Source: an uncultured Bdellovibrionales bacterium (GTDB taxonomy: Bacteria > Patescibacteriota > Minisyncoccia > Moranbacterales > UBA1568). From it: a DNA stretch of 64,000 bases. The notes under the pieces were generated by a model. The model did no database searches, was not told the DNA's origin, and saw only the letters and a program-made list of their open reading frames with translations. Below, in pieces: positions 6,807 to 56,108 of the stretch; positions within the stretch are counted from its first letter, which is position 1, and each line of letters starts with the position of its first letter. The translations under genes were made by a program, and so were the position numbers. The stretch lies in the NCBI GenBank assembly GCA_964612055.1, contig CAZTBI010000001.1:71957-135956 (forward strand). The letters are read 5' to 3'.

Positions 6807-6818
6807 AGAATTTTAGGT

Positions 6819-8294: not shown

Positions 8295-8370
8295 AACCTA
8301 CTTGCTTAAATTTCTTGTTTAAGCTACTTTTGGTGTGGGAATAATCCCGCAAACAACGAGGGGATTCACC

Positions 8371-8544: not shown

Positions 8545-8571
8545 GAAGTACGGATTCGGAAGAACGTCAGA

Positions 8572-8605
8572 GGTGCTACGAGAAAATTCGGAGCACCTTT
8601 TTTAT
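8572..8605. terminator. bidirectional rho-independent terminator (ggtgct...agcacc + T7)
   Basis: 6-bp GC stem with a 13-nt loop, followed by TTTTTTATT. It is located between convergent genes (small + ORF and miaA on -). Confidence 0.6.
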
Positions 8606-8608
8606 TCC

Positions 8609-9505
8609 TTAGAAAAGTTTTTCTGCTTCTTTAGCTTCGGTAATCCAATGAATCTTGGCGCCCATTTTTTCGAAACGGCGCAGCCAGGTGATTTGGCGCT
8701 TGGCGTAGTGGCGGATTTCAAAGTTCAGACGTTCTTTCATTTCTTCTTTTGAAATTTTTCCTTGGAGAAAAAGAGCGATGTATTTGTATTCTAGGCCGAA
8801 GCTTTCGAGTTTTTTGAAGCTCAGTCCGCTGGCACGTAAGTTCTTTACTTCAGCGAGCATGCCTTTTTTGAGACGCTTCTCTAGCCGCGTCTCGATGTTC
8901 TTATTGAGTGTTTCTTTTGGCGGATTGAGAGCGATAATGAGGAAAGATTCCCGATCTTTGATCTTCGGTTTTTGGACGGGAGGGACTTTACCAAGTGCAG
9001 CGACGATCTCCAGGGCTCGGATGAGACGAATCTTATTCTTGGGATCAATATTTTTGGCACGAGTAGAATCTTTCTTTTTCAGTTGCGCGAAGAGCTCTTC
9101 AGCTGAGAGTTTATCAAGCTTCTTCCGGAGTGCCATATCAGGTTTTACGGCTGGAAAAGTATTTTCTTCGAGGAGGGCTTGAATCCAAAATCCAGTACCA
9201 CCGCAGATAATCGGGTTTTTCTGGCGCTTTTTGATATCGTTTATAATTTTCTTAGCATCGCGGACGAAATGAGTGACGTTGTAATTTCGCTTTGGACTGC
9301 CAACGTCGAGAAGGTGATGTTTGGCCAGTTTTTGTTCAGCCTTGGTCACTTTGCCAGTACCGATATCCATGCCACGGTAGACTTGTCGGCTATCGGCCGA
9401 GATGATTTCGCCATTGTATTTTTGAGCGAGAGCAATGGCTAAATCCGACTTGCCAGAAGCTGTCGGTCCCATAATGACAAGAGTTTTGTGGAATGATTTT
9501 CGCAT
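8609..9505 (-). CDS. miaA: tRNA dimethylallyltransferase MiaA
   Basis: LVIMGPTASGKSDLAIALAQKYNGEIISADSRQVYRGMDIGTGK is the MiaA P-loop and signature. Confidence 0.92.
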   Translation of the reverse strand: MRKSFHKTLVIMGPTASGKSDLAIALAQKYNGEIISADSRQVYRGMDIGTGKVTKAEQKLAKHHLLDVGSPKRNYNVTHFVRDAKKIINDIKKRQKNPIICGGTGFWIQALLEENTFPAVKPDMALRKKLDKLSAEELFAQLKKKDSTRAKNIDPKNKIRLIRALEIVAALGKVPPVQKPKIKDRESFLIIALNPPKETLNKNIETRLEKRLKKGMLAEVKNLRASGLSFKKLESFGLEYKYIALFLQGKISKEEMKERLNFEIRHYAKRQITWLRRFEKMGAKIHWITEAKEAEKLF

Positions 9506-9561
9506 CGCACTAGTATGTCATATTTCTCTTTTTTGGCAAAGAATTTATAAATTTCTGCATC

Positions 9562-9695
9562 AGCAAGCAACCTTTCAAAGTACCGCTTGCTTGCCCTGGC
9601 GTGGCAAGCTGCTCTACGCTTCCACCCGCACTCTTTTTCCTTCGGAAAAAACCATGCCCGTTCGGGTTCCAGGGTTACTTTGGAAGATTCTTGCT
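9562..9695 (+). repeat. structured intergenic repeat R1, copy 1 (candidate ncRNA)
   Basis: About 135 nt. It is about 90% identical outside the variable P3 hairpin to 49893..50037. It forms three hairpins inside a closing helix, with compensatory differences between copies. Confidence 0.6.
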
Positions 9696-9738
9696 GAAAG
9701 AAATTTGGCGTCTCAAGTGAGCTCCTTCGCTCTTTCAT

Positions 9739-20110: not shown

Positions 20111-20132
20111 GTTTCCAAAGCCTGCTCTTTTG

Positions 20133-20166
20133 AAATCCCTGCCGTAAGGTGGGGATTTTTGTTTTG
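20133..20166 (+). terminator. rho-independent terminator after rplL (GNRA-capped stem + T-run)
   Basis: cctgcc-GTAA-ggtggg stem including G-U pairs, followed by ATTTTTGTTTT. Confidence 0.6.
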
Positions 20167-20243
20167 ACAAAAAAAGACGAAAGGAGGATACTAATTCTGT
20201 TGTCAGATTTTTCTGACCTTTTCTTTTTTAAGGAGTAAACGCT

Positions 20244-22334
20244 ATGTCGCTCGAAATGGTACTATCTTTTTTCGTTCTGCTGCTCATCTCACTCGGAACG
20301 TATTTTATCTCCCGGCGCATCCGCCTGCCATATACGGTGCTCTTGGTGTTGGTCGGCTCGCTCCTGGTTCCACTCACACATTTTTCGTTCTTCTCTTTCC
20401 TCCAGGAATTCCGTCTGACACCTGAGCTCCTTTTCTACTTTTTCCTGCCTATCCTCATCTTCGAATCGGCGTATAACATGCGGGTGAGGGATCTCATGAC
20501 TAATATCCGGGCGGTTTCTTGGTTCTCGATTGGCAGTCTCATTATTTCCATGTTCTTCATCGCCTTCGCGCTCTATGCCGTGCTCTGGCTTATCGGGATG
20601 GAAGTGCCATTTTTGGCGACGTTGCTTTTCGGAGCGCTCATTTCCGCGACTGACCCTGTGGCGGTACTAGCGCTTTTCAAGGAATTCGGGGTTCCTCGCC
20701 GTCTAGCATTTCTTTTTGAGGGAGAAAGCCTCTTCAATGACGGGACATCACTCGCTGCTTTCCTGGTCGTTCTCGAAGTCATCCTCAAGGGCTTTTCTGG
20801 CGTGCCAACGATCCTTGAGGGTATCTTTACGTTTGGCACTATGGTGTTCGGCGGTGTCGCCTTTGGTATCTTCATGGGCTTCCTTTTTGCTAAGCTGATC
20901 GAGAAAGTCGAGGATAACGAACACATCGAGATTACGCTCACCATGCTTGTTGCGCACCTCACATTCATCCTTTCCGAGGTCATTTCACACTACTTCGTTC
21001 TGTTTGGCCAGGAGATAAAGCTTTCGTCTATCATCGCGACGGTGATGGCTGCCATGGTGATCGGCAACTACGGCCGTTCCAAGCTCTCCCTCACGAGTCA
21101 TCATTTTATGGAGAGTTTCTGGGGCTATTTCGCCTTTCTCGTGAACTCGCTCGTCTTTATTACTATGGGTTTCCTCTTCGCCAGCCTGCCGATTGAACTC
21201 AAGCAGTTCATCCTCCCGATTATCCTGACGGTCGTGGTTGTGGCAGTCGGTCGGGCACTCTCCATATATCCGGTCGCCAAGTGGCTCAACCGGAGCAAGA
21301 AGGAAGAGGAAATCCCGCTCAATTGGCAGCATCTGCTCTCCTGGGGGAGTCTGCGTGGAGCGCTCGCTGTCATCATGGTGCTGCTCATTCCGGATGGACT
21401 GACCCTTCCAGGTTGGCAGTTCGATTTTACACTGAAGGAATTCATCACAGCGCTCACGATCGGCTGCATCTACTTCACGTTGTTCGTAAAGGCGCTCAGC
21501 ATAGGATCCATGATTAGAAAGTACAAGCTTGATGCTCTGACTCCGGTTGAGCAAGCAGGATACCGACAGGCCCGCTCTCTCATTCTTTCGTTCGGACAGG
21601 GAAAACTTGATGATTTTCTCGAGAAGCATTACATGAATACGGCTACTTATGAGAAATTGAAGCAAGATGTCTGCTTAAAGCAGGATCTTGAACGGAAGGA
21701 GTGCCGAAGCATCATTGAGATGAATGAGAATGATTTTGAAGAAGCGCTTCGTGTCTATGCTCTTGGTATAGAGAAGCACTTTTTGGGATTACTGTTCCAG
21801 TATCAAGAGGTGAGCGAGCCCGTCTATAAACGGGTCCTGACCAAGCTTGATGTCCAGCTCGAGCGCGTGGAACGGGGCGGACTTCAGACACAGTCTCTCG
21901 ACGAGGATTTTGAACCGGATTGGTTCGAGCAGATCGCGGCTTTTATGAGAAGAGCTCTTTTTATACGCCAGGAAGAGGCCGATCGGTTGAAGGATCAATA
22001 TATGTATTACCGGGCGCAGGAGATCATCGCTCGCAAGGTGATCAAGGAATTTAAGCGGCTCAAGAATCATCCGGCATTTAATTTTGAGACGTACGATATT
22101 CTTTTGGAGAGGGTAGTGAACACGTATCAGATCTTTCACGACGATGCCGCTACCAGGAAACAGATGCTTCTGTCTGGTCATGAAGAGCTTCTTTCGGCGC
22201 TTGATCAGGAATTTGGCAGTGAGAGTTTGCACAAAGCCTTTGTTGATGGATTGCATCAACTGACACGCAAGAACATGTTGCCTGGGAAACTTGCTATTCT
22301 CTTACGGGAAGAGTTTACTTCCAAAGAGTTTTAG
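20244..22334 (+). CDS. monovalent cation:proton antiporter, CPA1/NhaP family, with ~270-aa cytoplasmic C-terminal domain
   Basis: About 12 TM segments with the NhaP/NHE motif FLFEGESLFNDGTSLAAF, then a long soluble charged tail. Confidence 0.85.
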   Translation: MSLEMVLSFFVLLLISLGTYFISRRIRLPYTVLLVLVGSLLVPLTHFSFFSFLQEFRLTPELLFYFFLPILIFESAYNMRVRDLMTNIRAVSWFSIGSLIISMFFIAFALYAVLWLIGMEVPFLATLLFGALISATDPVAVLALFKEFGVPRRLAFLFEGESLFNDGTSLAAFLVVLEVILKGFSGVPTILEGIFTFGTMVFGGVAFGIFMGFLFAKLIEKVEDNEHIEITLTMLVAHLTFILSEVISHYFVLFGQEIKLSSIIATVMAAMVIGNYGRSKLSLTSHHFMESFWGYFAFLVNSLVFITMGFLFASLPIELKQFILPIILTVVVVAVGRALSIYPVAKWLNRSKKEEEIPLNWQHLLSWGSLRGALAVIMVLLIPDGLTLPGWQFDFTLKEFITALTIGCIYFTLFVKALSIGSMIRKYKLDALTPVEQAGYRQARSLILSFGQGKLDDFLEKHYMNTATYEKLKQDVCLKQDLERKECRSIIEMNENDFEEALRVYALGIEKHFLGLLFQYQEVSEPVYKRVLTKLDVQLERVERGGLQTQSLDEDFEPDWFEQIAAFMRRALFIRQEEADRLKDQYMYYRAQEIIARKVIKEFKRLKNHPAFNFETYDILLERVVNTYQIFHDDAATRKQMLLSGHEELLSALDQEFGSESLHKAFVDGLHQLTRKNMLPGKLAILLREEFTSKEF

Positions 22335-22383: not shown

Positions 22384-22989
22384 ATGACCTTTTTTGGGAT
22401 CGACCTTGTTTCGCTTATTGAAACTATCGGGTATATCGGAGTATTTAGTATTGTTTTTGCAGAGACTGGTCTTTTTCTCGGATTTTTCTTTCCGGGGGAT
22501 AGTCTACTTTTTGTAGCGGGTTTCCTCGCTTCTCAGGAAATTTTCTCTCTCCCGTTTCTTATGGTAGGTATTTTCTTGTCTGCGGTGCTTGGTAATTTTT
22601 TCGGCTACGAGTTTGGAAAACGGGTGGGACCGAAGCTTTTTAGTCGGGAAGATTCTCTCATTTTCAAGAAAGCCCATGCCTTGAAGGCACAGGCTTTCTA
22701 TGAAAAACATGGACCAAAAACGATCGTTTTGGCACGTTTCATGCCTATTGTCCGCACCTTCGCTCCGATTGTAGCTGGTATTGCCAATATGCATTTCCGC
22801 ACCTTCTTCATCTACAACTTGGTTGGGGCGCTTTTATGGACTTTGGGATTGGTACTTATGGGGTATTCGCTCGGCAGCGTCATCGACGTTGATCGTTATC
22901 TCCTCCCCATCATCCTTTTGATCGTTTTTCTCTCCTTTTTGCCTGGTATCATTGGGTATCTCAAGGAGCGTTCGCAGAGGGGAAAATAG
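22384..22989 (+). CDS. DedA/TVP38 family membrane protein
   Basis: Motifs GDSLLFVAGFLA and ARFMPIVRTFAPIVAGIANM with the typical DedA topology. Confidence 0.85.
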   Translation: MTFFGIDLVSLIETIGYIGVFSIVFAETGLFLGFFFPGDSLLFVAGFLASQEIFSLPFLMVGIFLSAVLGNFFGYEFGKRVGPKLFSREDSLIFKKAHALKAQAFYEKHGPKTIVLARFMPIVRTFAPIVAGIANMHFRTFFIYNLVGALLWTLGLVLMGYSLGSVIDVDRYLLPIILLIVFLSFLPGIIGYLKERSQRGK

Positions 22990-23136
22990 GGGAAGTCGTG
23001 GTTTTGACAAAAATTGGAAAAAGAGTAAGATGGGAATGTTCCTAAAAGATGGTTTCAGACCCTCTTTTCTTTTTTCCGCCAGAGGGTGGATCCGCCTTGG
23101 GCGGAGGGTAGACTGATATGGTTGAATTTCTCTGCT

Positions 23137-23673
23137 ATGTATCGCTTGCTCCGAAAAATCGTGACGACTCCAAAATTGATCATTCCAGAGCAGGAACTGC
23201 TTAGTCTGGATACGGCTGTTTTGGGCGAGAAAATAGAGGCTTCTGTAAAGAAACTGTTCCAGGGCTCGCTCGCTATCCGCGAAGTGGCAGCTGGTTCCAG
23301 TAATGCAGAAGAACAAGAATTGACAGCACTTGGCAATGTTTATTACGATGTCGAGCGTTTTGGTATTCACTTTGTGGCCTCTCCTCGACATGCCGATATG
23401 TTGTTTGTGACTGGTCCAGTATCACGCAATATGGCTGAGGGATTGCGTCATACCTATGATGCTATGCCGACACCGCGTTTTGTCGTCGCTATCGGTGATG
23501 GTGCCATTGACGGAGGTATCTATCGTGATTCCTACGCTATTCACAACAGTGTCGAAGAAATTATCCCGGTTGATTTCAAGATTCCTGGTGATCCGCCATC
23601 TCCAAAGGTTGTTTTGGCATCGCTACTCCATATTTTCCAGGATCTCGAGTCGCAGAATCTTCTGAATAAGTAG
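23137..23673 (+). CDS. NuoB/HyfI-like small subunit of a group-4-hydrogenase/complex-I-like module, Fe-S ligand cysteines all substituted
   Basis: The conserved NuoB core is present (ERFGI..ASPRHADMLFVTGPVS...IIPVDFKIPGDPPSP). The four N2-cluster Cys positions read S, S, D, D (AAGSSNAEE for LACCA, IGDGAIDGG for GACA, PGDPP for PGCPP). Confidence 0.8.
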   Translation: MYRLLRKIVTTPKLIIPEQELLSLDTAVLGEKIEASVKKLFQGSLAIREVAAGSSNAEEQELTALGNVYYDVERFGIHFVASPRHADMLFVTGPVSRNMAEGLRHTYDAMPTPRFVVAIGDGAIDGGIYRDSYAIHNSVEEIIPVDFKIPGDPPSPKVVLASLLHIFQDLESQNLLNK

Positions 23674-23678
23674 TTCAT

Positions 23679-25742
23679 ATGGATATTCTTCTCTCACCAA
23701 TCGGCGTCCTCACTTTTGTAACGATATTTCTCGTCGGTGCTTTCGGCGCTCTTTTTCTCTCTCGTTTTCTTAATGATCAGGGAAGATGGGCTGGATATTT
23801 CGCTCATGGGGCAGCGCTTCTTGGTTCGCTTCTCGCGTTGTTTATCGCAGCTGGTGTTCTGCTTTCTGGTCAGGGGATTGCCTTCTCTCTTCCCAGTGTT
23901 TTGCCTGGGGTGCTGAATTTTGATTTCAGGCTTGATGGTCTAGCTGCTTTTTTCTTAGGGGTCATAGCACTGATCGCAACTGCATCGTCCTTGTACGGAT
24001 TTTCCTATCAAAAGCATTTCTACGGTAAGTACGATCTTGGTTACCTTGGTTTTTTCTACAATGTATTCATCATTAGCACCATGTTGGTGACGTTGGCCAA
24101 TCAGGCGCTGTTCTTTCTCTTGGTTTGGGAATGCATGTCTCTTGCCTCATACTTCCTCGTTATCTATGAGTATCGAAAAAAAGAAAACATTCGCGCCGGC
24201 TACCTCTATTTCTTGATGACGCATTTCGGAACGCTGTGTATCATGCTGGCATTTTTCTTTGCTTACAAGGCAATTGGTTCTTTTGATTTCGATGCTTGGC
24301 GAGCGGCAGCAGGAACAGTAACTTCGGGAATGCAGACGCTTATTCTTTCCTTCGCTCTCATTGGTTTTGGTATCAAGGCTGGTATTATTCCGCTTCATAT
24401 TTGGCTACCTGGTGCTCACTCGGCTGCTCCGACCCATGTTTCTGCACTTCTTTCGGGGGTCATGATCAAGACGGCTATTCTCATGTTCATTCGCTTCTTC
24501 TTTGACTTCTTTCCAGGCGCACCACTGGAGTGGGGGCTCATCTTCTTGGTCTTGGGAGGCATTTCCTCGCTTCTGGGAGTGTTATACGCGCTCTCAGAGC
24601 ATGATATCAAGCGTCTTTTGGCCTATCACAGCATTGAAAATATCGGTATCATCTTGCTCGGAGTAGGGGCGGGGATTACTTTTTTTGCTCTTGGACTGGA
24701 AACGTTTGCTCTCTTTGCCTTGGCAGCAGCGCTGTATCACACGATGAACCACGCTATTTTCAAGGCACTGTTGTTCTTGGGTGCTGGTTCGGTTGTTTCG
24801 GCGACAGGGACACGTAATATGGAATCCTACGGGGGATTGATTCGCGTTCTTCCTTACACCGCATTTTTCTTTCTCATCGGATCACTCGCTATCTCTGCTT
24901 TCCCGCCGTTCAATGGTTTTGCGAGTGAATGGCTTACTTTTCAGGCCTTGTTTGTTGGTATCAGTTCAGCGAGCGTTGTCGTCAAAGCGGTATTTATCTT
25001 TGCTATCGGGAGCCTGGCCTTTACTGGGGGATTGGCAGCGGCTTGTTTCGTCAAAGCGTTTGGAACGACCTTTTTAGCCCGTTCTCGTAGTGCTGCCCCT
25101 TTGGAAGGGGTGCACGAAGGGGGAGTGTTGATGTTCGTAGCGATGGGACTTTTGGCGCTCCTCACACTGGTCCTTGGATTTTTTTCAACGGTCGTGATTG
25201 CTTCGCTTGTAGGAGTAGTGGCGAGTATCGGACTTTCTGATCCGCTCACGCTTCGTTTTCCATTTACTGAATTTATCGAAGCACGTCATCAATTTGCTGA
25301 TGTCTTGCCGCTTGATATGGTCGCAATACTGTTGGTCGCGGTACTTGCGATAGTGGTCGCGGTAGTCACTTGGGGGACGCGTGCTCGGAAAGTTGTCATC
25401 GGTACGACTTGGGATTGTGGTACGCCACTGACCAATCGCACAGAAGTGACGGCGACGAGTTTTTCCCGTGCTTTGATAACAATCTTCCGGGGGGTTCTTC
25501 GTCCGACCAAGCAGACGGAAGTGGAGTATCATGATGAAAAGATGCGTTACTTCATCAAATCACAAGAAGTGAAGACATCGATCGGTGATCCGTACCGAAA
25601 GGCCCTCTATCATCCGCTCAATGCCATTCTTCTTTTCATTGCTTCGAAGGTGCGCCGTATTCATACCGGTAATGTCAACATTTATATTCTCTATATCTTT
25701 GTCACCCTCCTTATCCTCTTAGTGTGGACACTCCGCGCCTAA
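23679..25742 (+). CDS. NuoL/MrpA/HyfB-like antiporter-type membrane subunit
   Basis: 687 aa, polytopic. WECMSLASYFLV...GIIPLHIWLPGAHSAAPTHVSALLSGVMIKTAI are motifs of NuoL/HyfB. Confidence 0.85.
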   Translation: MDILLSPIGVLTFVTIFLVGAFGALFLSRFLNDQGRWAGYFAHGAALLGSLLALFIAAGVLLSGQGIAFSLPSVLPGVLNFDFRLDGLAAFFLGVIALIATASSLYGFSYQKHFYGKYDLGYLGFFYNVFIISTMLVTLANQALFFLLVWECMSLASYFLVIYEYRKKENIRAGYLYFLMTHFGTLCIMLAFFFAYKAIGSFDFDAWRAAAGTVTSGMQTLILSFALIGFGIKAGIIPLHIWLPGAHSAAPTHVSALLSGVMIKTAILMFIRFFFDFFPGAPLEWGLIFLVLGGISSLLGVLYALSEHDIKRLLAYHSIENIGIILLGVGAGITFFALGLETFALFALAAALYHTMNHAIFKALLFLGAGSVVSATGTRNMESYGGLIRVLPYTAFFFLIGSLAISAFPPFNGFASEWLTFQALFVGISSASVVVKAVFIFAIGSLAFTGGLAAACFVKAFGTTFLARSRSAAPLEGVHEGGVLMFVAMGLLALLTLVLGFFSTVVIASLVGVVASIGLSDPLTLRFPFTEFIEARHQFADVLPLDMVAILLVAVLAIVVAVVTWGTRARKVVIGTTWDCGTPLTNRTEVTATSFSRALITIFRGVLRPTKQTEVEYHDEKMRYFIKSQEVKTSIGDPYRKALYHPLNAILLFIASKVRRIHTGNVNIYILYIFVTLLILLVWTLRA

Positions 25743-25751
25743 TTTTCGCTT

Positions 25752-26717
25752 ATGGACATTCTTATTTTTCTCCTCCAATTCCTCTTCATCCCAATGGTTT
25801 CGCCACTGGCTGTTGGCATTATTCGCAAGGTGAAGGCTCATATGCAGAATCGTGTGGGAGCGAGTATTTTCCAGCCCTACCGTGATTTGTGGAAATTGTT
25901 TCATAAGGACGAGGTTATTTCACAGGAAACATCTTGGATCTTTCGTTTTGCCCCGTATCTGATTTTCTCTATCACAGTTTTGATCGGAGCCAGTGTCCCG
26001 ATCATTACTACCGTTATTCCTTCGCTTTTTGAAGGATCTTCTTTTGTTCTTTCTTTGTTACCGAGCGGAGATTTTATCACGATCATCTACCTCTTTGCGC
26101 TGGCAACCTTTTTCTTGGCTCTTGCTGGTATGGATGCGGGGAGTGGTTTCGGGGGATTTGGTTCTAGTCGTGAAATGACCATGGCAGCCTTGGCTGAGGG
26201 TGGACTCTTCTTCTCTCTTCTCGTGGCCTCAGCCATCGCTCAAACGGGTAATGTCATGACCATGGTAGGAAGTTTGCAAGCACTTCCTTTTCAAGCCTAC
26301 ATCCCACTTTCTATTGCTTTCATTGCATTCTTCATCGCGCTTTTAGCTGAAAACTCACGCTTCCCGGTTGATAATCCTGCGACGCACCTTGAATTGACCA
26401 TGATTCATGAAGCCATGATCTTGGAGTACTCGGGAAAGCGCTTGGCGCTTATCGAATGGGCAAGTTGGAGCAAGCTTTTGGTGTTTATTGCCTTGGGTGC
26501 GAATATTTTCTTTCCGTGGGGAGTGGCGACGTCGTTTGTGCCGCAGACGCTTTTTGTAGCGATGCTGTGGTTTGCCGCGAAAGCCACTTGTTTTCTTTTT
26601 GCTATCGCCTTTATCGAGTCAACTATGGCGAAATTCCGTATCTTCCGTGTTCCTGACCTCCTCTTCACTTCTTTTGTTCTCTCAGTGATTGCGCTTGCTA
26701 TTACGATTACCTTTTAA
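25752..26717 (+). CDS. NuoH/HyfC(HycD)-like membrane subunit
   Basis: 321-aa polytopic protein resembling formate hydrogenlyase subunit 4 / NuoH (FRFAPYLIF..., FGGFGSSREMTMAALAEG). Confidence 0.75.
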   Translation: MDILIFLLQFLFIPMVSPLAVGIIRKVKAHMQNRVGASIFQPYRDLWKLFHKDEVISQETSWIFRFAPYLIFSITVLIGASVPIITTVIPSLFEGSSFVLSLLPSGDFITIIYLFALATFFLALAGMDAGSGFGGFGSSREMTMAALAEGGLFFSLLVASAIAQTGNVMTMVGSLQALPFQAYIPLSIAFIAFFIALLAENSRFPVDNPATHLELTMIHEAMILEYSGKRLALIEWASWSKLLVFIALGANIFFPWGVATSFVPQTLFVAMLWFAAKATCFLFAIAFIESTMAKFRIFRVPDLLFTSFVLSVIALAITITF

Positions 26718-26724
26718 CACGAGT

Positions 26725-27384
26725 ATGCTCGAACATTCCCGCGAACTCTATTTCTCACTTGATCTCATCGCATTTCTCGCGACGATTGTTATGCATGTGA
26801 TCAAGACGAATCGCAACCTCATTCGTCTCTATTTACTCCAGTCCTTGGTAGTAGGAATTTTCCTCTTGAGCCTCGGTCTGACCGAAGGGAATAACGGCCT
26901 TATATTTGTGGCTGGACTGACGCTTTTGATCAAGGTGGTTCTGGCTCCTATCTTCTTTTCTCGATTGGTGCGTCGCTATGGAACACGTTTTACAGTCAAT
27001 AATTACCTCTCGACACCGCTCACCCTTATTGTTCTTACGGCATTGGTTCTCTTTTCTTATTCACGCGTCTTTCTTCCGCTCAGTATTTTGGTACCAGAGG
27101 CGTTGGGGCTCTTCCCGCTCAATCTGGCAGTCATCCTGATTTCGATTTTCATGCTTATCAACCGACGCGGAGCCTTCTCTCAGATGATTGGCATCTTATC
27201 GCTTGAGAATAGCATCCTTCTCCTGGCTGCATTTATCGGTATCAAGCAGCCGCTGGCGCTTGAAGTGGGAATTATTTTCGATATTGTTATCTGGATGATT
27301 ATTGCTCAAGTATTTATTTCCATGATCTATAAACAATTTGGATCGCTCAACGTCACTCAGATGAAGCGTCTTATTGAAGAGTAA
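26725..27384 (+). CDS. HyfE-like (NuoK-related) membrane subunit
   Basis: Pattern IGILSLENSILLLAAF...ALEVGIIFDIVIW...QFGSLNVTQMKRL parallels the E. coli HyfE C-terminal half. Start is ATG 26725 (the ORF's upstream TTG at 26689 overlaps the previous gene). Confidence 0.65.
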   Translation: MLEHSRELYFSLDLIAFLATIVMHVIKTNRNLIRLYLLQSLVVGIFLLSLGLTEGNNGLIFVAGLTLLIKVVLAPIFFSRLVRRYGTRFTVNNYLSTPLTLIVLTALVLFSYSRVFLPLSILVPEALGLFPLNLAVILISIFMLINRRGAFSQMIGILSLENSILLLAAFIGIKQPLALEVGIIFDIVIWMIIAQVFISMIYKQFGSLNVTQMKRLIEE

Positions 27385-27389
27385 ATTCT

Positions 27390-28844
27390 ATGCTGCTTAC
27401 CTTCCTCATTTCATTGCCACTCCTCGCTGCTTGTTTCATTGGCCTGCTTCAGTCAAAGCATGTCCGTGTGATTGAAAGAGCAGTGTTTGTTTCGAGTGTT
27501 CTCGAGCTTGGATTGATTCTGTCGCTCCTTCCGCAGGTAGTGACTCGGGGTTCAGTGGAGGCGTCGGCCCTTTTCTCGCTTGATCCGCTCGGAGCCTTCC
27601 TTTCTCTTCTCATTGCTTTGGTCGGTTTCTTTGCGAGTCTGTATTCAATCGGATACTTGCGTGCTGAAGTACAGAAAGAAATTATTGGGCTGCGGCGTGT
27701 TCGTCAGTATTTTCTTCTTCTCAAACTTTTCATGTTTGCCATGTTTTTGGCCGTAGCGACCATGAGTCCGATGGTCATGTGGATTGCTATCGAAGCAACG
27801 ACGCTTTCAACGGCATTCCTGATTAGTTTCTACAACAAGCAATCCGCGATAGAGGCCGCCTGGAAGTATCTTATTATCAACTCTCTTGGACTCCTCCTCA
27901 GTCTTTTGGGAACGCTCTTGTTTCTGGCGCTGCCAGAAGCACGCGAAAGTGCTTTTACCTGGGAAGCTCTTGCGGAAAATGCCGCCAATCTTTCTCCGCT
28001 TATCATCAAGATAGCCTTCATCTTCGTCTTGGTTGGGTATGGAACGAAGGTGGGCTTGGTACCGCTCCATACTTGGAAGCCGGATACGTACGCCAAGGCA
28101 CCGACACCGATTGCGGCACTGCTTTCGAGCGTACTCTTAAACGTTGCCTTTTTTGCAATCTTGCGCTTTAAGGGGGTGACGGATGCTGCTCTGGGTTCAA
28201 ATTTCGCTTCTGAGCTCCTCATTTTCTTTGGTATGCTCTCACTTGGTTTTGCTGCCCTCATCATTTTTGTACAGACGAATTACAAGCGCCTTCTCGCGTA
28301 CTCGAGCATTGAGCATGCTGGACTCTTGGCTCTGGGATTTGGTTTCGGAGGTGTTGGCGTGTTCGCTTCGCTTCTCCATATGCTCTACCATGCCTTGGGG
28401 AAAACACTTATCTTCTTTGCGGCAGGAAATATTTTCTTGAAGTATAGTTCGACCAAGATGCGTCATGTCACTGGCATGGTGAAGACCCTGCCGCTTTCTT
28501 CAATCGTCTTGTTCATAGCATTTATCGCCCTCTTAGGCCTGCCGCCTTTTGGTTTATTTATGACAGAGTTCCTGCTTCTTTCAGCGGGTATGGAGCAGTA
28601 CCCGTATCTGGTTATTGCCGCTCTCTTGTCATTGGCCGTTGTTTTCTTTGGATTCCTGAGACATCTCATGGGGATGTTCTTTGGTGAAGTGCCACAGGGC
28701 ATCGAATGTGGCGAGTCTAACAAGCTTACACAGCTTCCACTCCTTCTGGTTTTGGCCCTCCTTCTGGTTTTGAGCTGGTATTTACCTGAGACGTTGTCGG
28801 CGCTTATAGAGCTTGCAGCACGGGGTCTTTCGCTTCATTCTTAG
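27390..28844 (+). CDS. NuoN/NuoM/HyfF-like antiporter-type membrane subunit
   Basis: 484 aa with WIAIEATTLSTAFLISF...GYGTKVGLVPLHTWKPDTYAKAPTPIAALLSSV, motifs of the NuoM/N/HyfF family. Confidence 0.85.
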   Translation: MLLTFLISLPLLAACFIGLLQSKHVRVIERAVFVSSVLELGLILSLLPQVVTRGSVEASALFSLDPLGAFLSLLIALVGFFASLYSIGYLRAEVQKEIIGLRRVRQYFLLLKLFMFAMFLAVATMSPMVMWIAIEATTLSTAFLISFYNKQSAIEAAWKYLIINSLGLLLSLLGTLLFLALPEARESAFTWEALAENAANLSPLIIKIAFIFVLVGYGTKVGLVPLHTWKPDTYAKAPTPIAALLSSVLLNVAFFAILRFKGVTDAALGSNFASELLIFFGMLSLGFAALIIFVQTNYKRLLAYSSIEHAGLLALGFGFGGVGVFASLLHMLYHALGKTLIFFAAGNIFLKYSSTKMRHVTGMVKTLPLSSIVLFIAFIALLGLPPFGLFMTEFLLLSAGMEQYPYLVIAALLSLAVVFFGFLRHLMGMFFGEVPQGIECGESNKLTQLPLLLVLALLLVLSWYLPETLSALIELAARGLSLHS

Positions 28845-28856
28845 TATTTTTCTCTT

Positions 28857-30440
28857 ATGTCTGAACCAACACTTCTCGCCCGCTACGGACTTGCGACCTA
28901 CGTTCCAGAACAGGAAGGAAATCTTTTCTTGTTTCATGTCACCGAAAAAGATCTGGAGCTTGTCATAAAGACACTTAAGCATGATCATGCGCTCCCGTTA
29001 AAAACGGTCGCTGCTACTGATGAACGGAAAGAACGAGGGACATTTCGTATCCACTATATTTTCGGTGTACCAAAGGAAAACATTTTTATTGTTCCGTACA
29101 TTTCAGTCGATAAAAATGCCGAGACATTTCCGTCTTTGACTCCGATAGACCAAGAGTTTTCTCTGTACGAACAAGAAATCAAGACATTCTTTGGTCTTTC
29201 TCCAGAGGGTCACCCTCGTGCAACGCGCATCATTCTTCATGAGGAGAACTTTCCGAAGGATGTCTACCCATTGCGTAAGGACTTTGCCTGGGATACCAAG
29301 GTGACGCCACCAACGGAGAAGTTTGTTCCGACATTTCAAAAATACGAAGGTGAGGGAGTGTATGAGATTCCGGTCGGACCAGTGCATGCTGGCATTATTG
29401 AGCCGGGACATTTTCGATTCAGTGTTTTGGGCGAAGAGATTCTGCGTCTGGAGGCGCGCCTCGGGTATGTGCACAAGGGAACAGAAAAGCTTTTTGAGCA
29501 ATTACCACTGGAGAAAAAATTGACCCTTTCGGAGCGTATTTCCGGGGATAGCTCCTATCATCATGCCTTGGCCTTAGCTCAGGCAGTAGAGCGTCTCGCA
29601 TCTATAGAGGTACCAGCCCGTGGTCGTTTGCTCCGCGTGGTATACGCAGAACTCGAGCGCTTGGCAAATCATTTCAATGATCTCGCTTTTATCATGCTTG
29701 ATACGGGGTTTAGTTTTGGCGGCAGTCATGGTTCGCGTCTCCGTGAGCGTGTTATGCAGTGGAATGAGCGTCTCACAGGAAGTCGCTTTCTCCGGGGGGT
29801 TGTCACTTATGGTGGTGTGACTCGCGATATAAGTGGAGAGACCTTGCAAGCGTTGCATAATGATTTGGAATTGCTCGAAAAGGATTTCATGGAGGTGATC
29901 GCCGTGACCAAGGAAAGCGATTCCGTACAGAATCGTTTGAAGGGGACAGGGCGTTTGGATGCGACCGTGGCCAGAGATCTTGGGGCAGTAGGAATTGCCG
30001 CTCGGGCTTGCGGACAAGAAATCGATGCTCGGGCTGATTATCCGTACGCCGCCTATGATGTGGTGCAGTTTGGTATCATGACGGAGAAATCCGGCGATGT
30101 CTATGCCCGCTTCCGGGTCCGGGCTCGTGAGGTGACGCAGTCTTTCCGTCTTTTGAATCAGGTGTTGGCGCTTCTCGTGCACGAGTCTGGGGCGATTGCC
30201 TCGCCAGTGCACGCTCTTCCTGCCAATCGTCATGCGGTCTCTCTCGTCGAAGGGTGGCGTGGAGATATTGTGTATTTCGTCGCTACTGACAGTGACGGCG
30301 TGATCAGTCGAGTGAAGGTACGTGACCCATCGTTTTTGAACTGGACCCTCTTTCCGTACGTCATCGGTCAGGATATGGTGCCTGACTTCCCGCTCATTAA
30401 TAAGAGCTTCAACCTTTCCTATACAGGAAACGATCTCTAG
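28857..30440 (+). CDS. fused NuoC-NuoD / HyfG(HycE)-like large subunit lacking Ni-Fe ligand cysteines
   Basis: The N-terminal roughly 150 aa is NuoC-like. The remainder is NuoD/HycE-like (YEIPVGPVHAGIIEPGHFRF, ERISGDSSYHH, ...VRDPSFLNW). Both CxxC Ni-Fe motifs (RxCGxC and DPCxxC) are replaced (SGDS, DPSFLN). Confidence 0.8.
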   Translation: MSEPTLLARYGLATYVPEQEGNLFLFHVTEKDLELVIKTLKHDHALPLKTVAATDERKERGTFRIHYIFGVPKENIFIVPYISVDKNAETFPSLTPIDQEFSLYEQEIKTFFGLSPEGHPRATRIILHEENFPKDVYPLRKDFAWDTKVTPPTEKFVPTFQKYEGEGVYEIPVGPVHAGIIEPGHFRFSVLGEEILRLEARLGYVHKGTEKLFEQLPLEKKLTLSERISGDSSYHHALALAQAVERLASIEVPARGRLLRVVYAELERLANHFNDLAFIMLDTGFSFGGSHGSRLRERVMQWNERLTGSRFLRGVVTYGGVTRDISGETLQALHNDLELLEKDFMEVIAVTKESDSVQNRLKGTGRLDATVARDLGAVGIAARACGQEIDARADYPYAAYDVVQFGIMTEKSGDVYARFRVRAREVTQSFRLLNQVLALLVHESGAIASPVHALPANRHAVSLVEGWRGDIVYFVATDSDGVISRVKVRDPSFLNWTLFPYVIGQDMVPDFPLINKSFNLSYTGNDL

Positions 30441-32311: not shown

Positions 32312-32878
32312 TTAAGCCACTTCTTTTGATTTTTGGTGGGCCAGGTAAGTGAGGGAGAGGATGGCGACGAAGACGACGAGTGCCATGAAAGGAATAGTTA
32401 TGAAGCCAAAGGTGACAATAGGGGAGTTGCTACAAGATGATTCAAGTGGGTTGGTAGAGCAAGGAAGGAGAAAGGGATTGCCGGCGACGTACTTCTGATA
32501 GTGACCATAGTAGTGATAGGCAGCGATCGGAAGTCCGATAGCGGCCATGATGCCTACGATCAGGTGATTCATCTTGGTCTTGGTCCAGAGAGTCACGGCA
32601 ATGATGATTTCAATCGGAAACATGAAAATACGCTGCCACCAGCAGAGAACACAGACAGGAGTGAGGTAGACATACTGATAGGTGAGGGCGCCGAGCGTGG
32701 CGATAGTAGCGAGGAGGGCGATAGCCTGGAGGAGGCAGGTGTAGGAAATGGCGGAGAGCTTTGTTCGTAGGGACTGGGAGTAAAAGGCGCCGAGTATCGA
32801 GAGGATGGTAGCGGCACCCAGGAGGAGAACCAAAACGGACAGAACGGTCGAATACTGCTCAAGATTCATAGCAAGCAA
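32312..32878 (-). CDS. disulfide bond formation protein DsbB-like
   Basis: Four TM helices. The first periplasmic-loop redox pair is CVLC (the same motif as E. coli DsbB). Second-loop cysteines are LLPCS...SSCS. Confidence 0.6.
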   Translation of the reverse strand: MLAMNLEQYSTVLSVLVLLLGAATILSILGAFYSQSLRTKLSAISYTCLLQAIALLATIATLGALTYQYVYLTPVCVLCWWQRIFMFPIEIIIAVTLWTKTKMNHLIVGIMAAIGLPIAAYHYYGHYQKYVAGNPFLLPCSTNPLESSCSNSPIVTFGFITIPFMALVVFVAILSLTYLAHQKSKEVA

Positions 32879-34875: not shown

Positions 34876-36063
34876 CTATTGTTTCAGGAATTTTGAAATC
34901 ACGCTGAGAAGCTCGGTTTTTTCAGACCAGATACCGGAATGACTCTTCTCTTCGTAGAGAACGCCGTATCCCTTGTCATTCTGATTGTGTTGTTTATAAG
35001 TCCACCAGGTCCAGCCAACATTATTTTGATTCAAAAGAGAAAGCACGGCTGCTGCGTATACTCGATTGGGATCCTCGCCTGATTCAGATCCCGTTTGTTG
35101 GACAAATATAGGAACATTATATTTCGTTCGGAGGTCGAGGAGAGACTGAAGTCTTTCGCGGAGATTAGCAATATTTTCTTCCTGAGATTTTCCTGTGAAG
35201 ACAAAGAGGTTACCAGTGTAAATAAGTGGTACGTCTGTTTGTATATACCCTTCGGCGGAAGCTTTTTTAATAGTGTAGCTTGGACCCGCTCCCACAAGCA
35301 AAGGAGTACGAGGGTCTACTTCATGAATGGCAGTGATAAGTTCGCTATAAAATTGACGGATATCTGCATTACTGACGCCGGTTGGATTTGGTTCTGGTAG
35401 GAGTTCGTACATACCTATATAAGGAGTATCTTTGTAACGATTGGCGATAAATTTCCAGACCTCAATAAACTCCGCGCGCATAGCTGGGTCAGTCCAGAAG
35501 TTGTGACCCTTGTCTCCGTAAGAGTTATTAGGATCGCAGAATAATTTTTGATCTTCCTGGGTACCATTTTGTCCGCAATCAGAATCAATAAAAAGATCAA
35601 TCCAAAGATGCTGCGCGGAAGCCCAAGCAATGTACTGGTCGAGTTGTGCGAGATGAGCAGGATCAATGTGTCCGGGAGCGCTATCTTTGCGGCTATCAAT
35701 GGATGCTTCGGAGTATTTCCCCCACCATCGCAGAGGCATACGGATGATATTGGCGCCTTGCTTGACGTTATCGGCGGCATCTTTTTCCTCGGCGGTGCCC
35801 CATGAGCCCCAGTTCATCCCACGAAGCATGATTGGGTTTCCATTTTGATCCAAGATTTCTGAACCGCGGAGAGAGAGTTTCTCTGGAGTAGTGGATTGTG
35901 GAACGGTTGTGGGGGAAGTAGTAGTTGAAGAAGTAGGTGAGGAAGAAGATGGGTTTGTAGTGGTAGGGGCTGGTTTTTTAGAAAACTGTGTTATGCCAAA
36001 CGCCACAACTACGATAAGCGCGAGAAAGGCTACAGAGAGTACGAGGACTTTTGATGATTTCAT
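34876..36063 (-). CDS. secreted glycoside hydrolase family 5 (cellulase/mannanase-like) with Ser/Thr/Pro-rich linker
   Basis: Signal-peptide-like N-terminus, then a low-complexity TTTNPSSSSPTSSTTTSPTT linker. GH5 motifs are present (NWGSWG, IIRMPLRW, ELLPEPN around the catalytic Glu). Confidence 0.7.
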   Translation of the reverse strand: MKSSKVLVLSVAFLALIVVVAFGITQFSKKPAPTTTNPSSSSPTSSTTTSPTTVPQSTTPEKLSLRGSEILDQNGNPIMLRGMNWGSWGTAEEKDAADNVKQGANIIRMPLRWWGKYSEASIDSRKDSAPGHIDPAHLAQLDQYIAWASAQHLWIDLFIDSDCGQNGTQEDQKLFCDPNNSYGDKGHNFWTDPAMRAEFIEVWKFIANRYKDTPYIGMYELLPEPNPTGVSNADIRQFYSELITAIHEVDPRTPLLVGAGPSYTIKKASAEGYIQTDVPLIYTGNLFVFTGKSQEENIANLRERLQSLLDLRTKYNVPIFVQQTGSESGEDPNRVYAAAVLSLLNQNNVGWTWWTYKQHNQNDKGYGVLYEEKSHSGIWSEKTELLSVISKFLKQ

Positions 36064-51705: not shown

Positions 51706-53034
51706 ATGGCACCACTGCCAGTTGATAAGATCCCGACTCATACCGGGTTCCATTTCGATGAGGTCCTGGGGATTTTCCAGATGTGGAATTATCCGCAGCA
51801 TTCCGAACCGCTTTTCCCTGGCATCAGCAACGCCAGTGTGGTTTTCTGGAATGCCGGCCGCAAGACGCCGGATGGCTACTACGCTGACGAAGGCTGGATC
51901 CGGAAGAATCGGATGTGTCCTGTCGGTTGTGGCGGCAGCATCTTTGACGAGCACCCCAAAGAAGAAGAGTCTGAGGAAGAGGAGCGCCTTCGTCCACAGA
52001 CCTGCGCGGCCCTGTTGGTTGCTCAGAAGCTCGGCATCGATCAGTTGCCACGGCTCCAGTCCTGCCTCCGATTCGCGGTGGAAGTCGATAACAATGCGAC
52101 GGATCATCCGCACAGCATTGCTGCGACCATCAAGAAGCTCCACAACAACCGTGAGACGACGCCGGGTCATGTCAGGAAGTGGGTGAAGGATCCGGAACAG
52201 GCAAAGAGGATCAAAGAACTCCTCCAGCGTCGGATCTCGATCGGTGATGTGTTCGAATGGGTGCAGCAAGGGATCTACGCCAAGATGTGCGAACAACCCC
52301 AGACCGACGACTTCACGATCGAAAAGATCGGTGAACTCATGCAGCTGCAAGGCATGCATGAACCGTTTTCGGCTGAGGACTGGTTGCGCATCGGCACTGA
52401 TGCGATGGAGCTCGATCAGTTGCTTTTTGACACGGTGACGGCTGAGCAGTACCAGGCGTTCAAGACCATTGTTCCTTTCCGAGGAATCGGCAGAGGGAGC
52501 AAGGTCATGGACATGAAGATCGCCGTAGTTCCGTCGGATGATGTGCGCATCGATCGTTACGCCCGATCAAAGTTGGGCGATCAAGTAGCGGTCACCGTCA
52601 TCAAAAGGTCGACTGGCAACATCGTCGTCATGGTGAACAAGTATTACGGTCTCCGTACCTATGACATCGCTCGGGCGATCAAGACGGAAGAATGTCTCAT
52701 GAGAGGCATCGAACTTCCGCGCTGGGATCAGATGAGGCGGCAGCTTCAGCACAGTGTGTGGTACTACCATGCGCCGGGCGGCAACCTCTTTAATGGGGCC
52801 AAGACCTCGCCGGATACGCCGCCGACCGTAATCCCGCTGCCGAGGATTGTCCAGTTGGTGAAGATGGCAGTTTCGTCTGAGGCGTTCGAATCGTCTCGGA
52901 GCGAATGCTGCCTGCAGGGGATCTGCAGTTCGACTCCACGGCAACCCTGTTCGTGGTACAAGTACGGCCTGTCCCGTTGTCAGACAATCCGCTTTGAAGC
53001 ACGACGTGACGCGGAGGCCGAGCTGAATAAGTAG
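51706..53034 (+). CDS. hypothetical protein (442 aa) encoded in a GC-rich island; possible horizontally acquired gene
   Basis: It is the only ORF spanning the whole island. It has a strong SD (AAGGAG 7 nt upstream) and its own promoter and terminator. GC is visibly higher than flanking DNA, with many spurious all-frame ORFs. No family recognised. Confidence 0.55.
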   Translation: MAPLPVDKIPTHTGFHFDEVLGIFQMWNYPQHSEPLFPGISNASVVFWNAGRKTPDGYYADEGWIRKNRMCPVGCGGSIFDEHPKEEESEEEERLRPQTCAALLVAQKLGIDQLPRLQSCLRFAVEVDNNATDHPHSIAATIKKLHNNRETTPGHVRKWVKDPEQAKRIKELLQRRISIGDVFEWVQQGIYAKMCEQPQTDDFTIEKIGELMQLQGMHEPFSAEDWLRIGTDAMELDQLLFDTVTAEQYQAFKTIVPFRGIGRGSKVMDMKIAVVPSDDVRIDRYARSKLGDQVAVTVIKRSTGNIVVMVNKYYGLRTYDIARAIKTEECLMRGIELPRWDQMRRQLQHSVWYYHAPGGNLFNGAKTSPDTPPTVIPLPRIVQLVKMAVSSEAFESSRSECCLQGICSSTPRQPCSWYKYGLSRCQTIRFEARRDAEAELNK

Positions 53035-55139: not shown

Positions 55140-56108
55140 ATGGAAACAGTGAAAAAGATATTACTGGCATCTCCGAGAGGATTCTGCGCTGGAGTGGCTC
55201 GTGCCGTCAAAGCGGTAGAAGATACGCTTGAAATTTTCGGTGCGCCAGTCTATGTGAAGCACGAAATCGTGCATAATAAGCACGTGGTGAAGGATTTGGA
55301 GGGGAAGGGTGCCATCACCATAGAAACGCTTGATGAAGCTCCGGAAGGGGCGGTAGTGGTTTTTTCAGCTCACGGTTCGCCACCTCGGCACTATGCTGAG
55401 GCGAAGGCGCGTGGTATACGCCTCATTGACGCCACCTGTCCTTTGGTGACCAAGGTGCATCTCGAGGTGCAACGTTTTATCAAAGACGGTTACCAGATTA
55501 TTTATATTGGACACAAAGGGCATATCGAGGGCGTCGGTGTGTTGGGGGAAGCGCCCGGAGTAGAGATTCCTTTGATTGAAACCGTAGAAGATGTCTTGGG
55601 ACTCGAAATCGGCAATCCGGAAAAACTCGTGTATCTGACGCAGACGACTTTGTCACTTGATGATACGAAATCAGTTATTGAAGCACTGAAAAAGAAGTAC
55701 CCACAGATTATCGCGCCACCACTCGAAGATATCTGCTATGCGACGACCAATCGCCAGACAGCGGTAAAGGAGCTCGCCAAGGAATGCGAGTTGGTGCTGA
55801 TTGTTGGATCGAGATCGTCTTCCAATTCAACTCGTCTCATGGAAACAGCCAATGCCTATGGTTCTATCGCCTATCTCGTTGATGATGCTACGCACCTTGA
55901 TCCACTGTGGTTCAAAGAAGTGGAAGTAGTCGGTATCAGTGCGGGCGCCAGTGCCCCTGAACATTTGGTGCAAGATATTGTGCAGCGCATCATGTCTCTG
56001 AGTAAAGCGTCTGTCGAAGAGTTCATCGTCAAACCAGAAACCATGAAGTTTGTCGAACCGCTGGAACTTATGAAGATTCGTGCTGAAAAGAAAGTCTCTC
56101 AAGTATAA
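55140..56108 (+). CDS. ispH: 4-hydroxy-3-methylbut-2-enyl diphosphate reductase
   Basis: SPRGFCAGVARAV...IVHNKHVV...SAHGSPP...ATCPLVTKVH is the IspH/LytB signature with three Cys. Confidence 0.9.
   Translation: METVKKILLASPRGFCAGVARAVKAVEDTLEIFGAPVYVKHEIVHNKHVVKDLEGKGAITIETLDEAPEGAVVVFSAHGSPPRHYAEAKARGIRLIDATCPLVTKVHLEVQRFIKDGYQIIYIGHKGHIEGVGVLGEAPGVEIPLIETVEDVLGLEIGNPEKLVYLTQTTLSLDDTKSVIEALKKKYPQIIAPPLEDICYATTNRQTAVKELAKECELVLIVGSRSSSNSTRLMETANAYGSIAYLVDDATHLDPLWFKEVEVVGISAGASAPEHLVQDIVQRIMSLSKASVEEFIVKPETMKFVEPLELMKIRAEKKVSQV

Follow-up and report, generated by a model that had tools for sequence, protein, structure and literature searches.

Complex I, the MBH, MBS and formate hydrogenlyase (FHL) complexes and the Mrp antiporters share one coupling machine, and how chemistry is coupled to ion movement at its junction is still disputed. 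Among their relatives, the energy-converting-hydrogenase-related (Ehr) family – an established one, defined by the loss of the Ni-Fe cysteines and functionally uncharacterised (PMC6349859, PMC10284858, PMC10432482, PMC4758237) – has a monophyletic subclade in the Candidate Phyla Radiation (CPR), whose large subunits lack the L1 and L2 Ni-Fe cysteines and which, according to Jaffe et al. (2020, BMC Biol 18:69; PMC7304191), 'likely cannot interact with H2'. Here we describe a locus of this kind: a six-gene operon at 23137..30440 of a 64-kb stretch of DNA (positions 71,957 to 135,956 of contig CAZTBI010000001.1; hereafter the window) from a bacterium of the Moranbacteria lineage. Since all metal-cluster sites of the encoded complex are lost and it is yet strongly conserved, it most likely moves ions without redox chemistry. 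More specifically, we propose, with a probability of roughly 45%, that it is a CPR Ehr complex that lost its electron-transfer chain and would now work as a redox-independent, gradient-driven translocator of cations or protons.

The described members of the family set the terms of comparison. Outside the CPR, EhrA-S of Geobacter sulfurreducens is an Ehr complex described by Marreiros et al. (2013), as cited in PMC6349859 and PMC4758237, and non-CPR Ehr complexes have the same six subunit types as the window complex; a review of complex I evolution (PMC8165549) does not mention Ehr. For the CPR subclade, Jaffe et al. inferred lateral transfer of the genes, and their Fig. S6b covers only the L1 and L2 regions of the large subunit (PMC7304191). 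One genome of their set, Moranbacteria UBA1302, carries the operon described here (locus L017), and the window cluster almost certainly belongs to the same clade. Loss of the small-subunit Fe-S ligands, deletion of a ferredoxin domain, the gene order, synteny with DedA and CPA1 genes and the pattern of selection are not part of that study (PMC7304191). Nor does the searchable literature contain a description of the small-subunit cluster loss, the ferredoxin-domain deletion, the gene rearrangement or the synteny, or a paper that ties Moranbacteria to an Ehr-like complex. The CPR clade of Ehr is thus already known; what appear to be new are its completely cofactor-free state and its pattern of conservation.

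The operon consists of six open reading frames (ORFs) separated by 5-12 nt, identified from the ORF list and by Pfam and NCBIfam profile searches:

23137..23673, + strand: NuoB/HycG/MbhJ-like small subunit (EhrS-like), 178 aa (PF01058, E 4.7e-23)
23679..25742, + strand: HyfB/HycC/MbhH/MrpA-like antiporter-like subunit with a C-terminal extension, 687 aa (PF00361; NF005086 hydrogenase-4 subunit B, E 1.8e-191)
25752..26717, + strand: HyfC/HycD/NuoH-like subunit, the anchor of the peripheral arm, 321 aa (PF00146; HycD 7z0s_D, E 2.7e-42)
26725..27384, + strand: HyfE-like (NuoK/J-related) membrane subunit, 219 aa (NF008556 hydrogenase-4 membrane subunit, E 1.2e-17; weak PF00420)
27390..28844, + strand: HyfF/NuoN/MrpD-like antiporter-like subunit, 484 aa (PF00361; NF005044, E 1.9e-125)
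28857..30440, + strand: fused NuoC-NuoD/HycE-like large subunit (EhrL-like), 527 aa (PF00329 and PF00346; HycE 7z0s_E, E 6.2e-67)

The ORF list also offers a GTG start at 23086 for the first gene and a TTG start at 26689 for the fourth; we take the ATG starts at 23137 and 26725, because the homologues are 178 and 219 aa long, the 178-aa homologues of the small subunit spanning 100% of the protein.

As in other Ehr systems, group-4-type large and small subunits, a NuoH-like subunit and antiporter-like subunits are encoded in one cluster. The large subunit lacks the Ni-Fe cysteines, in line with the definition of the family (PMC6349859, PMC10284858); the nearest non-CPR relatives all lack them too, and according to Jaffe et al. 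the CPR sequences fall into a subclade of Ehr (PMC7304191). Published functional proposals for Ehr, in which redox chemistry is coupled to ion translocation, assume an Fe-S electron-input module, and it is this module that is absent here. Judged by its sequence, the window complex is therefore an Ehr member without the Fe-S input assumed for its family.

An earlier note on this DNA, made from its letters alone, had already proposed an Ehr-like complex and the gene order NuoB-, HyfB-, HyfC-, HyfE-, HyfF- and NuoCD-like, and the Pfam and NCBIfam matches, the gene set and the loss of the Ni-Fe cysteines all agree with it. It had gone too far in calling the operon a complete hyf module, as HyfA, HyfD and HyfH have no counterpart in it, and in counting three antiporter-like subunits: PF00361 is found in two, the HyfB-like and the HyfF-like proteins. 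The novelty that it implied holds in part, the small-subunit loss being apparently unreported, while Ehr was an established family and the Ni-Fe-less CPR clade had been published in 2020 (PMC7304191).

Cofactor-ligand positions and membrane-arm residues

The small subunit contains no cysteine in its 178 aa. We mapped its ligand columns by residue-level alignment to solved structures (MbhJ, HycG and NDUFS7). SGSCNGCDIE of MbhJ and CGGCNGCEIE of HycG align with AGSSNAEEQE, where the CxxC pair has become Ser55 and Glu58; GSCA of NDUFS7 aligns with GDGA, where the third ligand cysteine has become Gly122, with Asp121 just before it; and PGCPP aligns with PGDPP, which puts Asp152 at the fourth. The positions that ligate the proximal [4Fe-4S] cluster hence read S55/E58/G122/D152, in place of the four cysteines that mark a group-4 hydrogenase.

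Despite these changes, the protein is predicted with confidence to keep the NuoB fold: its AlphaFold2 model (pLDDT 88.9, pTM 0.86) superposes on MbhJ (6cfw_J) with a TM-score of 0.88 and a root-mean-square deviation of 2.0 A, and on NuoB/PSST chains as well. Its best solved relative in FHL-1 (7Z0S) is HycG (E 1.3e-22). The N-terminus, MYRLLRKIVTT, matches MFRIIAKSLRAG, the N-terminus of proteins in which a two-cluster ferredoxin (Fer4) domain is fused to NuoB, with the core of about 110 residues that holds both clusters missing. With the N-terminal stub kept and the two-cluster core gone, the CPR small subunit seems to derive from a Fer4-NuoB fusion by domain deletion.

The large subunit has a single cysteine, C385, which lies outside the ligand motifs. 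Neither of the group-4 cysteine pairs, L1 (RxCGxCxxxH) and L2 (DPCxxC), is present: in the residue-level alignment RVCGICGFAH of HycE corresponds to RISGDSSYHH, and DPCYSC of HycE to NLSYTG at the C-terminus, so that the Ni-Fe ligand positions are Ser229, Ser232, Ser521 and Gly524. A gap-free alignment to Thermus thermophilus Nqo4 (2fug_4) places Gly230 at Tyr87, a ligand of the quinone head group, and the equivalent of His38 of Nqo4 is ambiguous in the same alignment owing to a difference in loop length.

The claim of the earlier note that all canonical ligand cysteines have gone from the operon is borne out by these alignments and by the columns of the homologues described below; several of its assignments shift. 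It was right about PGCPP and about L1 (RISGDSSYHH). It had read the first pair as SS for CC, a pattern that does not fit the CxxC of group 4; the Asp that it placed at the third ligand is Asp121, one residue before the aligned Gly122; and DPSFLNW, taken for L2, is an internal conserved strand, the true site being the C-terminal NLSYTG. Its statement that the complex cannot bind any known redox cofactor stands for the products of the operon and the window and is overstated beyond them.

Electron partners were sought in the operon and the 64-kb window. Neither contains a ferredoxin subunit of the HycF/HyfH/EchF/MbhN type – the earlier note had likewise seen no HycF/NuoI-type subunit in the operon – or Hyp maturation genes; the scanned ORFs of the window include no ferredoxin, hyp or nuoEFGI gene, no ORF of the window has the ferredoxin motif CxxCxxCxxxC, and those neighbours that are annotated have housekeeping functions. 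Fe-S proteins are made by the organism, as an IspH gene lies at 55140..56108. The operon products themselves can form no cysteine-bound Ni-Fe or Fe-S site.

In the membrane arm the ion-channel residues are intact. The residues named here are, unless stated otherwise, at least 90% conserved both in the CPR group and in the Fe-S-containing non-CPR group. The HyfB-like subunit keeps the channel residues E151, K233, K264, H354/H358/K362 and E417, the HyfF-like subunit E135, K220 and H330/H334/K338, and the HyfE-like subunit the membrane carboxylates E161, E180 and D186; the loop DNPATHLELTMIHEAM of the HyfC-like subunit is also kept. At residue 393 of the HyfF-like subunit, the ionisable position of transmembrane helix 12, the window protein shares Glu with the non-CPR relatives; most CPR homologues have Lys. 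The solved structures closest to the HyfB-like subunit are HycC (7z0s_C, E 1.2e-67), MbhH (6cfw_H) and MrpA (7qru_A), and the antiporter-like subunits match MrpA and MrpD at E 4.8e-39 and 1.6e-31.

Three known classes were considered for the complex and rejected. A group-4 [NiFe] hydrogenase would need the eight cysteines of the Ni-Fe site and the proximal cluster, all of which are replaced. The E. coli Hyf and FHL-1 systems are nevertheless among the closest described ones: HycE, HycC, HycD and HycG of FHL-1 (7Z0S) are the best solved relatives of four window subunits, and the NCBIfam names HyfB, HyfE and HyfF fit the window subunits best. Hyf and Hyc are true [NiFe] hydrogenases, with a proximal cluster, the ferredoxins HycF/HyfH and HycB/HyfA, and Hyp maturation, none of which is encoded in the operon or the window. 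Complex I was set aside because the NuoB homologue lacks the cysteines of cluster N2, Gly230 stands at Tyr87, and the operon has six genes with no NuoI, NuoE/F/G or NuoA/J/M. Membership of the Mrp (CPA3) antiporters, finally, does not fit the absence of MrpB/E/F/G and the presence of NuoH-, NuoB- and NuoCD-like genes.

Distribution, selection and relatives

The closest genome matches are metagenome-assembled genomes (MAGs) of Candidatus Moranbacteria/Moraniibacteriota. More distant ones include a Magasanikbacteria MAG, MAGs labelled 'Patescibacteria group', and two MAGs each titled Candidatus Saccharibacteria, Deltaproteobacteria and Gammaproteobacteria. The operon also occurs in many TPA MAGs titled 'uncultured Bdellovibrionales' (L001, L003, L004, L006, L009-L012, L014 and others), where it is 78-82% identical to that of the window and to those of Moraniibacteriota MAGs; these titles are probably a systematic taxonomic mislabel of CPR bins. 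All six genes are intact, in the order small-HyfB-HyfC-HyfE-HyfF-large, in 41 CPR loci, and the operon is kept in at least 40 species-level genomes at 52-82% identity.

The cysteine-less state, for which the earlier note had suggested looking in related genomes, recurs across these CPR loci. Among the best 120 small-subunit homologues (64-98% identity, from independent assemblies), cysteine is absent from the four ligand columns in 120/120; the columns read S-E-G-D in 113 of these 120 closest homologues, and 107 have no cysteine at all. Large subunits behave in the same way, their Ni-Fe positions reading S/S(T)/S/G in 39/39 CPR proteins, in which SGDSS.HH, NLSY.GNDL and the loop VGPVHAGIIEPGHFRF are invariant (the second Ni-Fe position being S or T). 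Because the same substitutions occur across more than 100 independent assemblies, the loss is not an assembly artefact, and the ligand-column alignments together with the 120 homologues show cysteines truly lost rather than shifted or obscured by sequencing error.

Two divergent loci look different in this respect. The small subunits of L033 (4315..4881; Magasanikbacteria) and L034 (4279..4824; from a MAG titled 'Deltaproteobacteria'), neither of which has DedA or CPA1 upstream, retain one of the four ligand cysteines (AGSTNACEQE and TGSDNSCEQE), and by sequence they look like an intermediate state of ligand loss.

All six genes are under strong purifying selection. Compared with seven relatives, nonsynonymous divergence (dN) is 0.09-0.26 for all six, lowest in the small subunit, and synonymous divergence (dS) is saturated (>1.4 or undefined). 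Many pairs give no numeric dN/dS, since their synonymous sites are saturated; wherever dS is measurable, the low dN against saturated dS puts dN/dS well below 0.1. Ranked by the fraction of columns that are at least 90% conserved within the CPR clade, the small subunit comes first (0.44), followed by HyfC (0.43) and the large subunit (0.37). By motif, the same measure ranges over 0.58-0.95 for the pocket motifs, with 0.95 for the region of the VGPVHAGIIEPGHFRF loop, 0.88 for VaAGSsNAEEQELTAL, the segment with the substituted ligands, and 0.84 for PDFPLINKSfnLSY.GNDL. The former active-site junction of the small, large and HyfC subunits, which in relatives holds the catalytic site and the coupling loops, is thus the most tightly constrained part of the complex.

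The nearest non-CPR relatives (L041-L080) come from Vicinamibacteria, Verrucomicrobiota and Bacteroidota, and their large subunits are 44-47% identical to the window protein. Their genes are ordered HyfB-(HyfB)-HyfC-HyfE-HyfF-large-small, the small subunit standing last, whereas it stands first in the CPR. Their large subunits also lack the Ni-Fe cysteines (SISGDT..GH and NLSYSG), which identifies them as classical Ehr. At about 285 aa and with about 13 cysteines, their small subunits retain AGSCNGCE, GAC and PGCPP and have a Fer4 dicluster domain at the N-terminus. The HyfC motif DNPATHLELTMIHEAM and the large-subunit motif VGPVHAGIIEPGHFRF are common to CPR and non-CPR Ehr. As these nearest relatives keep both the proximal cluster and the Fer4 domain, the CPR form is an Ehr that secondarily lost its whole Fe-S chain.

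Two further features of these relatives may be recorded. Verrucomicrobia-type loci (L046, L054, L060, L061, L062, L069 and L072) contain two tandem Ehr-like sets, at roughly 900-4700 and 4700-12300, of which the upstream one has a Fer4-fused small subunit of its own, 265 aa long, and a large subunit that diverges more (TVAGDTTIGH ... NLSYCG). In a Verrucomicrobiota Fer4-small fusion (L057, 7445..8308) the first ferredoxin motif looks degenerate, with no CxxCxxC, and the proximal cysteines are kept; to go by these motifs, this may be another partial loss of the relay.

Replacement of the proximal ligands is not confined to the CPR. Among the best 150 representatives of small-subunit clusters at 50% identity, 100 retain the four cysteines and about 25 have them replaced, mostly by Asp, Glu, Asn or Ser (SEGD, NEGD, DAAD, DADN, SAES, DDDS, ECED, DTED and others). 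A profile of the divergent cysteine-poor forms retrieves many proteins from Chloroflexota/Dehalococcoidia in which Fer4 is kept and the proximal site reads E/D-C/T-E-D (AGSENSCDWE, GDEA, PGDPP). One Chloroflexota MAG (GCA_054604075.1, contig JBTSGA010000001.1; L081, 3303..10867) has a hyf-like six-gene operon whose large subunit retains both Ni-Fe CxxC pairs (RVCGACAFSH and ELCYAC) and whose Fer4-fused small subunit has D/T/E/D at the proximal ligands (AGSDNSTDWE, GNEA, PGDPP) – an apparent hydrogenase, as predicted from its motifs, with a gap in its electron relay. Taken together, the roughly 25 clusters and this locus indicate that conversion of cysteine to carboxylate is recurrent and uncoupled from the loss of Ni-Fe.

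Possible functions of a cofactor-free complex

Two described systems are closest to what we propose. Mrp (7QRU, 6Z16), which is related to the membrane arm of complex I and is free of redox chemistry, has two antiporter-like subunits and a NuoK-like one; the window complex has the same, its two PF00361 proteins and its HyfE/NuoK-like protein standing for MrpA, MrpD and MrpC. Mrp has no NuoH-, NuoB- or NuoCD-type subunits, all three of which are present in the window complex, and it has MrpB/E/F/G, none of which is encoded in the window operon. The second system is the deactive form of mammalian complex I, which acts as a Na+/H+ antiporter once its redox and ion-translocating domains are uncoupled (Roberts and Hirst 2012, PMC3464577). 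That form is a reversible state of a full redox enzyme, whereas in the window complex the disconnection is permanent and genetically fixed.

The proposed course of events is as follows. A descendant of a group-4 membrane hydrogenase has lost its Ni-Fe site, its proximal [4Fe-4S] cluster and its fused two-cluster ferredoxin domain, so that the complex would no longer turn over electrons and would translocate ions much as Mrp antiporters and deactive complex I do. The peripheral arm, free of cofactors, might have been retained because the channel on the HyfC side cannot do without it as a cap, gate or sensor, with Glu58, Asp121 and Asp152 providing fixed negative charge, or a cation or proton site, where the cluster used to be. 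In Moranbacteria the complex would probably act with the neighbouring DedA and CPA1 proteins in the homeostasis of pH and ions.

The genes of these neighbours lie directly upstream of the complex, as the earlier note had pointed out:

20132-20159 and 20164-20192: terminator-like hairpin and promoter-like site just 5' of the CPA1 gene (consensus matches only)
20244..22334, + strand: CPA1-type Na+/H+ exchanger (PF00999, E 8.1e-55; TIGR00831, E 9.4e-68, under the curated cutoff)
22384..22989, + strand: DedA/VTT-domain membrane protein (PF09335, E 2.9e-20; NF008102 DedA, E 1.9e-49)
23004..23031, + strand: promoter-like TTGACA-16-TAAGAT in the spacer between the DedA and small-subunit genes (consensus scan, 10/12 matches; a consensus match only)

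The CPA1 and DedA genes are probably a separate transcription unit from the six-gene complex. A DedA gene directly precedes the small-subunit gene in 25/30 CPR loci, and a CPA1 gene lies upstream of the complex in 13 of the 29 CPR loci with enough sequence; a role in pH and ion homeostasis would fit this conserved neighbourhood. The E. coli DedA proteins YqjA and YghB are a relevant precedent, in that their loss leads to sensitivity to alkaline pH (PMC10846249).

Several points weigh against a redox-free translocator of this kind. The linkage to DedA and CPA1 is missing in the divergent CPR loci L024, L033, L034, L036 and L038, and the Ehr family to which the complex belongs, though well established, offers no characterised function to build on. 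Subunits of the MrpB/E/F/G type, the supposed Na+ carriers of Mrp and MBH, are absent, which leaves neither the partner ion of an antiport nor its path evident. With a CPA1 antiporter next door, a second antiporter of 7.3 kb would be costly for a genome of about 0.65 Mb. The search for redox partners covered the operon and the 64-kb window, a scope that bears on the claim of redox independence. Finally, it is not obvious what a plain antiporter would need such an arm for, yet the peripheral arm is the best-conserved part of the complex; the pocket may therefore do a more specific job than capping.

That last point leads to the strongest competing explanation, which we consider rather unlikely but substantial: the pocket at the junction of the small, large and HyfC subunits may bind a specific non-redox ligand, making the complex a ligand-coupled or ligand-gated transporter, or a sensor, instead of a plain antiporter. 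Candidate ligands are CO2 or bicarbonate, a metal cation coordinated by the carboxylates that replaced the cysteines, and an isoprenoid lipid carrier on which DedA would act as well. Conservation within the complex peaks in the pocket motifs and at the substituted ligand positions, the cysteines have been replaced non-randomly, repeatedly by Asp, Glu, Asn or Ser in separate lineages (CPR and Chloroflexota), DedA is adjacent in most CPR loci, and the window DedA weakly matches the NCBIfam models for the undecaprenyl-phosphate transporter UptA, far under their cutoffs. Set against this, the ligand is not nameable from the sequence, divergent CPR members lack the DedA linkage, and the pocket motifs are present in Fe-S-containing Ehr too, where their conservation may merely reflect the coupling machinery. 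This last fact can also be turned towards redox chemistry, since the pocket would once have served a redox reaction. The complex might then still be an enzyme of that kind, with a cofactor held by Asp, Glu, Ser or His, or with a separately encoded partner that docks on the peripheral arm and passes electrons to a substrate bound where the Ni-Fe site used to be. Single Asp or His ligands of Fe-S clusters do occur in other proteins, the organism makes Fe-S proteins, and a partner gene could lie beyond the 64 kb searched. Yet the small subunit has no cysteine, all close homologues have residues other than cysteine at its four ligand positions, the ferredoxin domain has been lost, all four Ni-Fe cysteines are gone, Gly230 replaces the quinone-site Tyr87, and no redox partner gene is found in the operon or the window; moreover, to judge from homologous solved architectures, without a relay cluster the pocket would be too remote from the surface for electron transfer. 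We hold this version to be very improbable.

Least credible of all, to the point of being nearly negligible, is that the operon is a decaying relic of lateral acquisition or that the cysteines are missing through an error of assembly or sequencing. The genomes of CPR bacteria are reductive, and Jaffe et al. inferred that these genes had been transferred laterally (PMC7304191), but none of the six ORFs is broken, dN/dS lies far below 0.1 in the comparisons with measurable dS, the operon persists across its species-level genomes at the identities given above, the independent assemblies share identical substitutions, and the cysteine-free small subunit yields a confident fold model. Pseudogene or relic status and artefact were rejected on the conservation of the operon, the ligand columns of the homologues and dN/dS.

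Returning to the redox-free translocator, a stronger version of it holds that replacement of cysteine by carboxylate was an adaptive conversion, not decay, and that the pocket of the negatively charged [4Fe-4S] cluster became a fixed-charge or cation/proton site that sets or gates the conformational changes of a complex-I-type machine. The recurrence of D/E/N patterns in other CPR lineages and in Chloroflexota argues for this version, which we put forward tentatively and think unlikely. Were it true, the complex would be a permanently redox-free relative of complex I whose peripheral arm acts as a switch for ions or pH, and it might be the main device for membrane energisation or ion conversion in these fermentative episymbionts.

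A junction that is conserved in its NuoB, NuoD and NuoH homologues and their loops, and that works without electrons, would separate the structural or electrostatic role of this region from the contribution of redox chemistry, and a complex of six subunits is of a size suited to cryo-electron microscopy and mutagenesis. It also bears on how membrane potential, pH and Na+ are handled in genomes of about 0.65 Mb without a respiratory chain. In current databases the genes are labelled 'formate hydrogenlyase', 'Ni,Fe-hydrogenase III small subunit' or 'NuoB', labels by which hydrogen or NADH metabolism is wrongly credited to CPR genomes.

Other genes of the window

Downstream of the large-subunit gene, the unit is closed by a HAD hydrolase gene on the opposite strand. 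Shortly beyond the complex lie genes for a DsbB-like disulfide-bond protein (32312..32878, - strand) and a GH5 cellulase (34876..36063, - strand). Scans for tRNA genes and Rfam families yielded a single tRNA-Gln, which has no bearing on the complex. Between 41324 and 46048 (+ strand) three genes follow one another, for a protein with sigma-70 region-4 and HARE-HTH domains, an unannotated ORF of 443 aa and a TrwB/VirD4-like coupling protein that bears a treble-clef zinc finger. At 51706..53034 (+ strand), amid cysteine-poor surroundings, a 442-aa ORF with no Pfam match at E <= 0.001 contains 11 cysteines.

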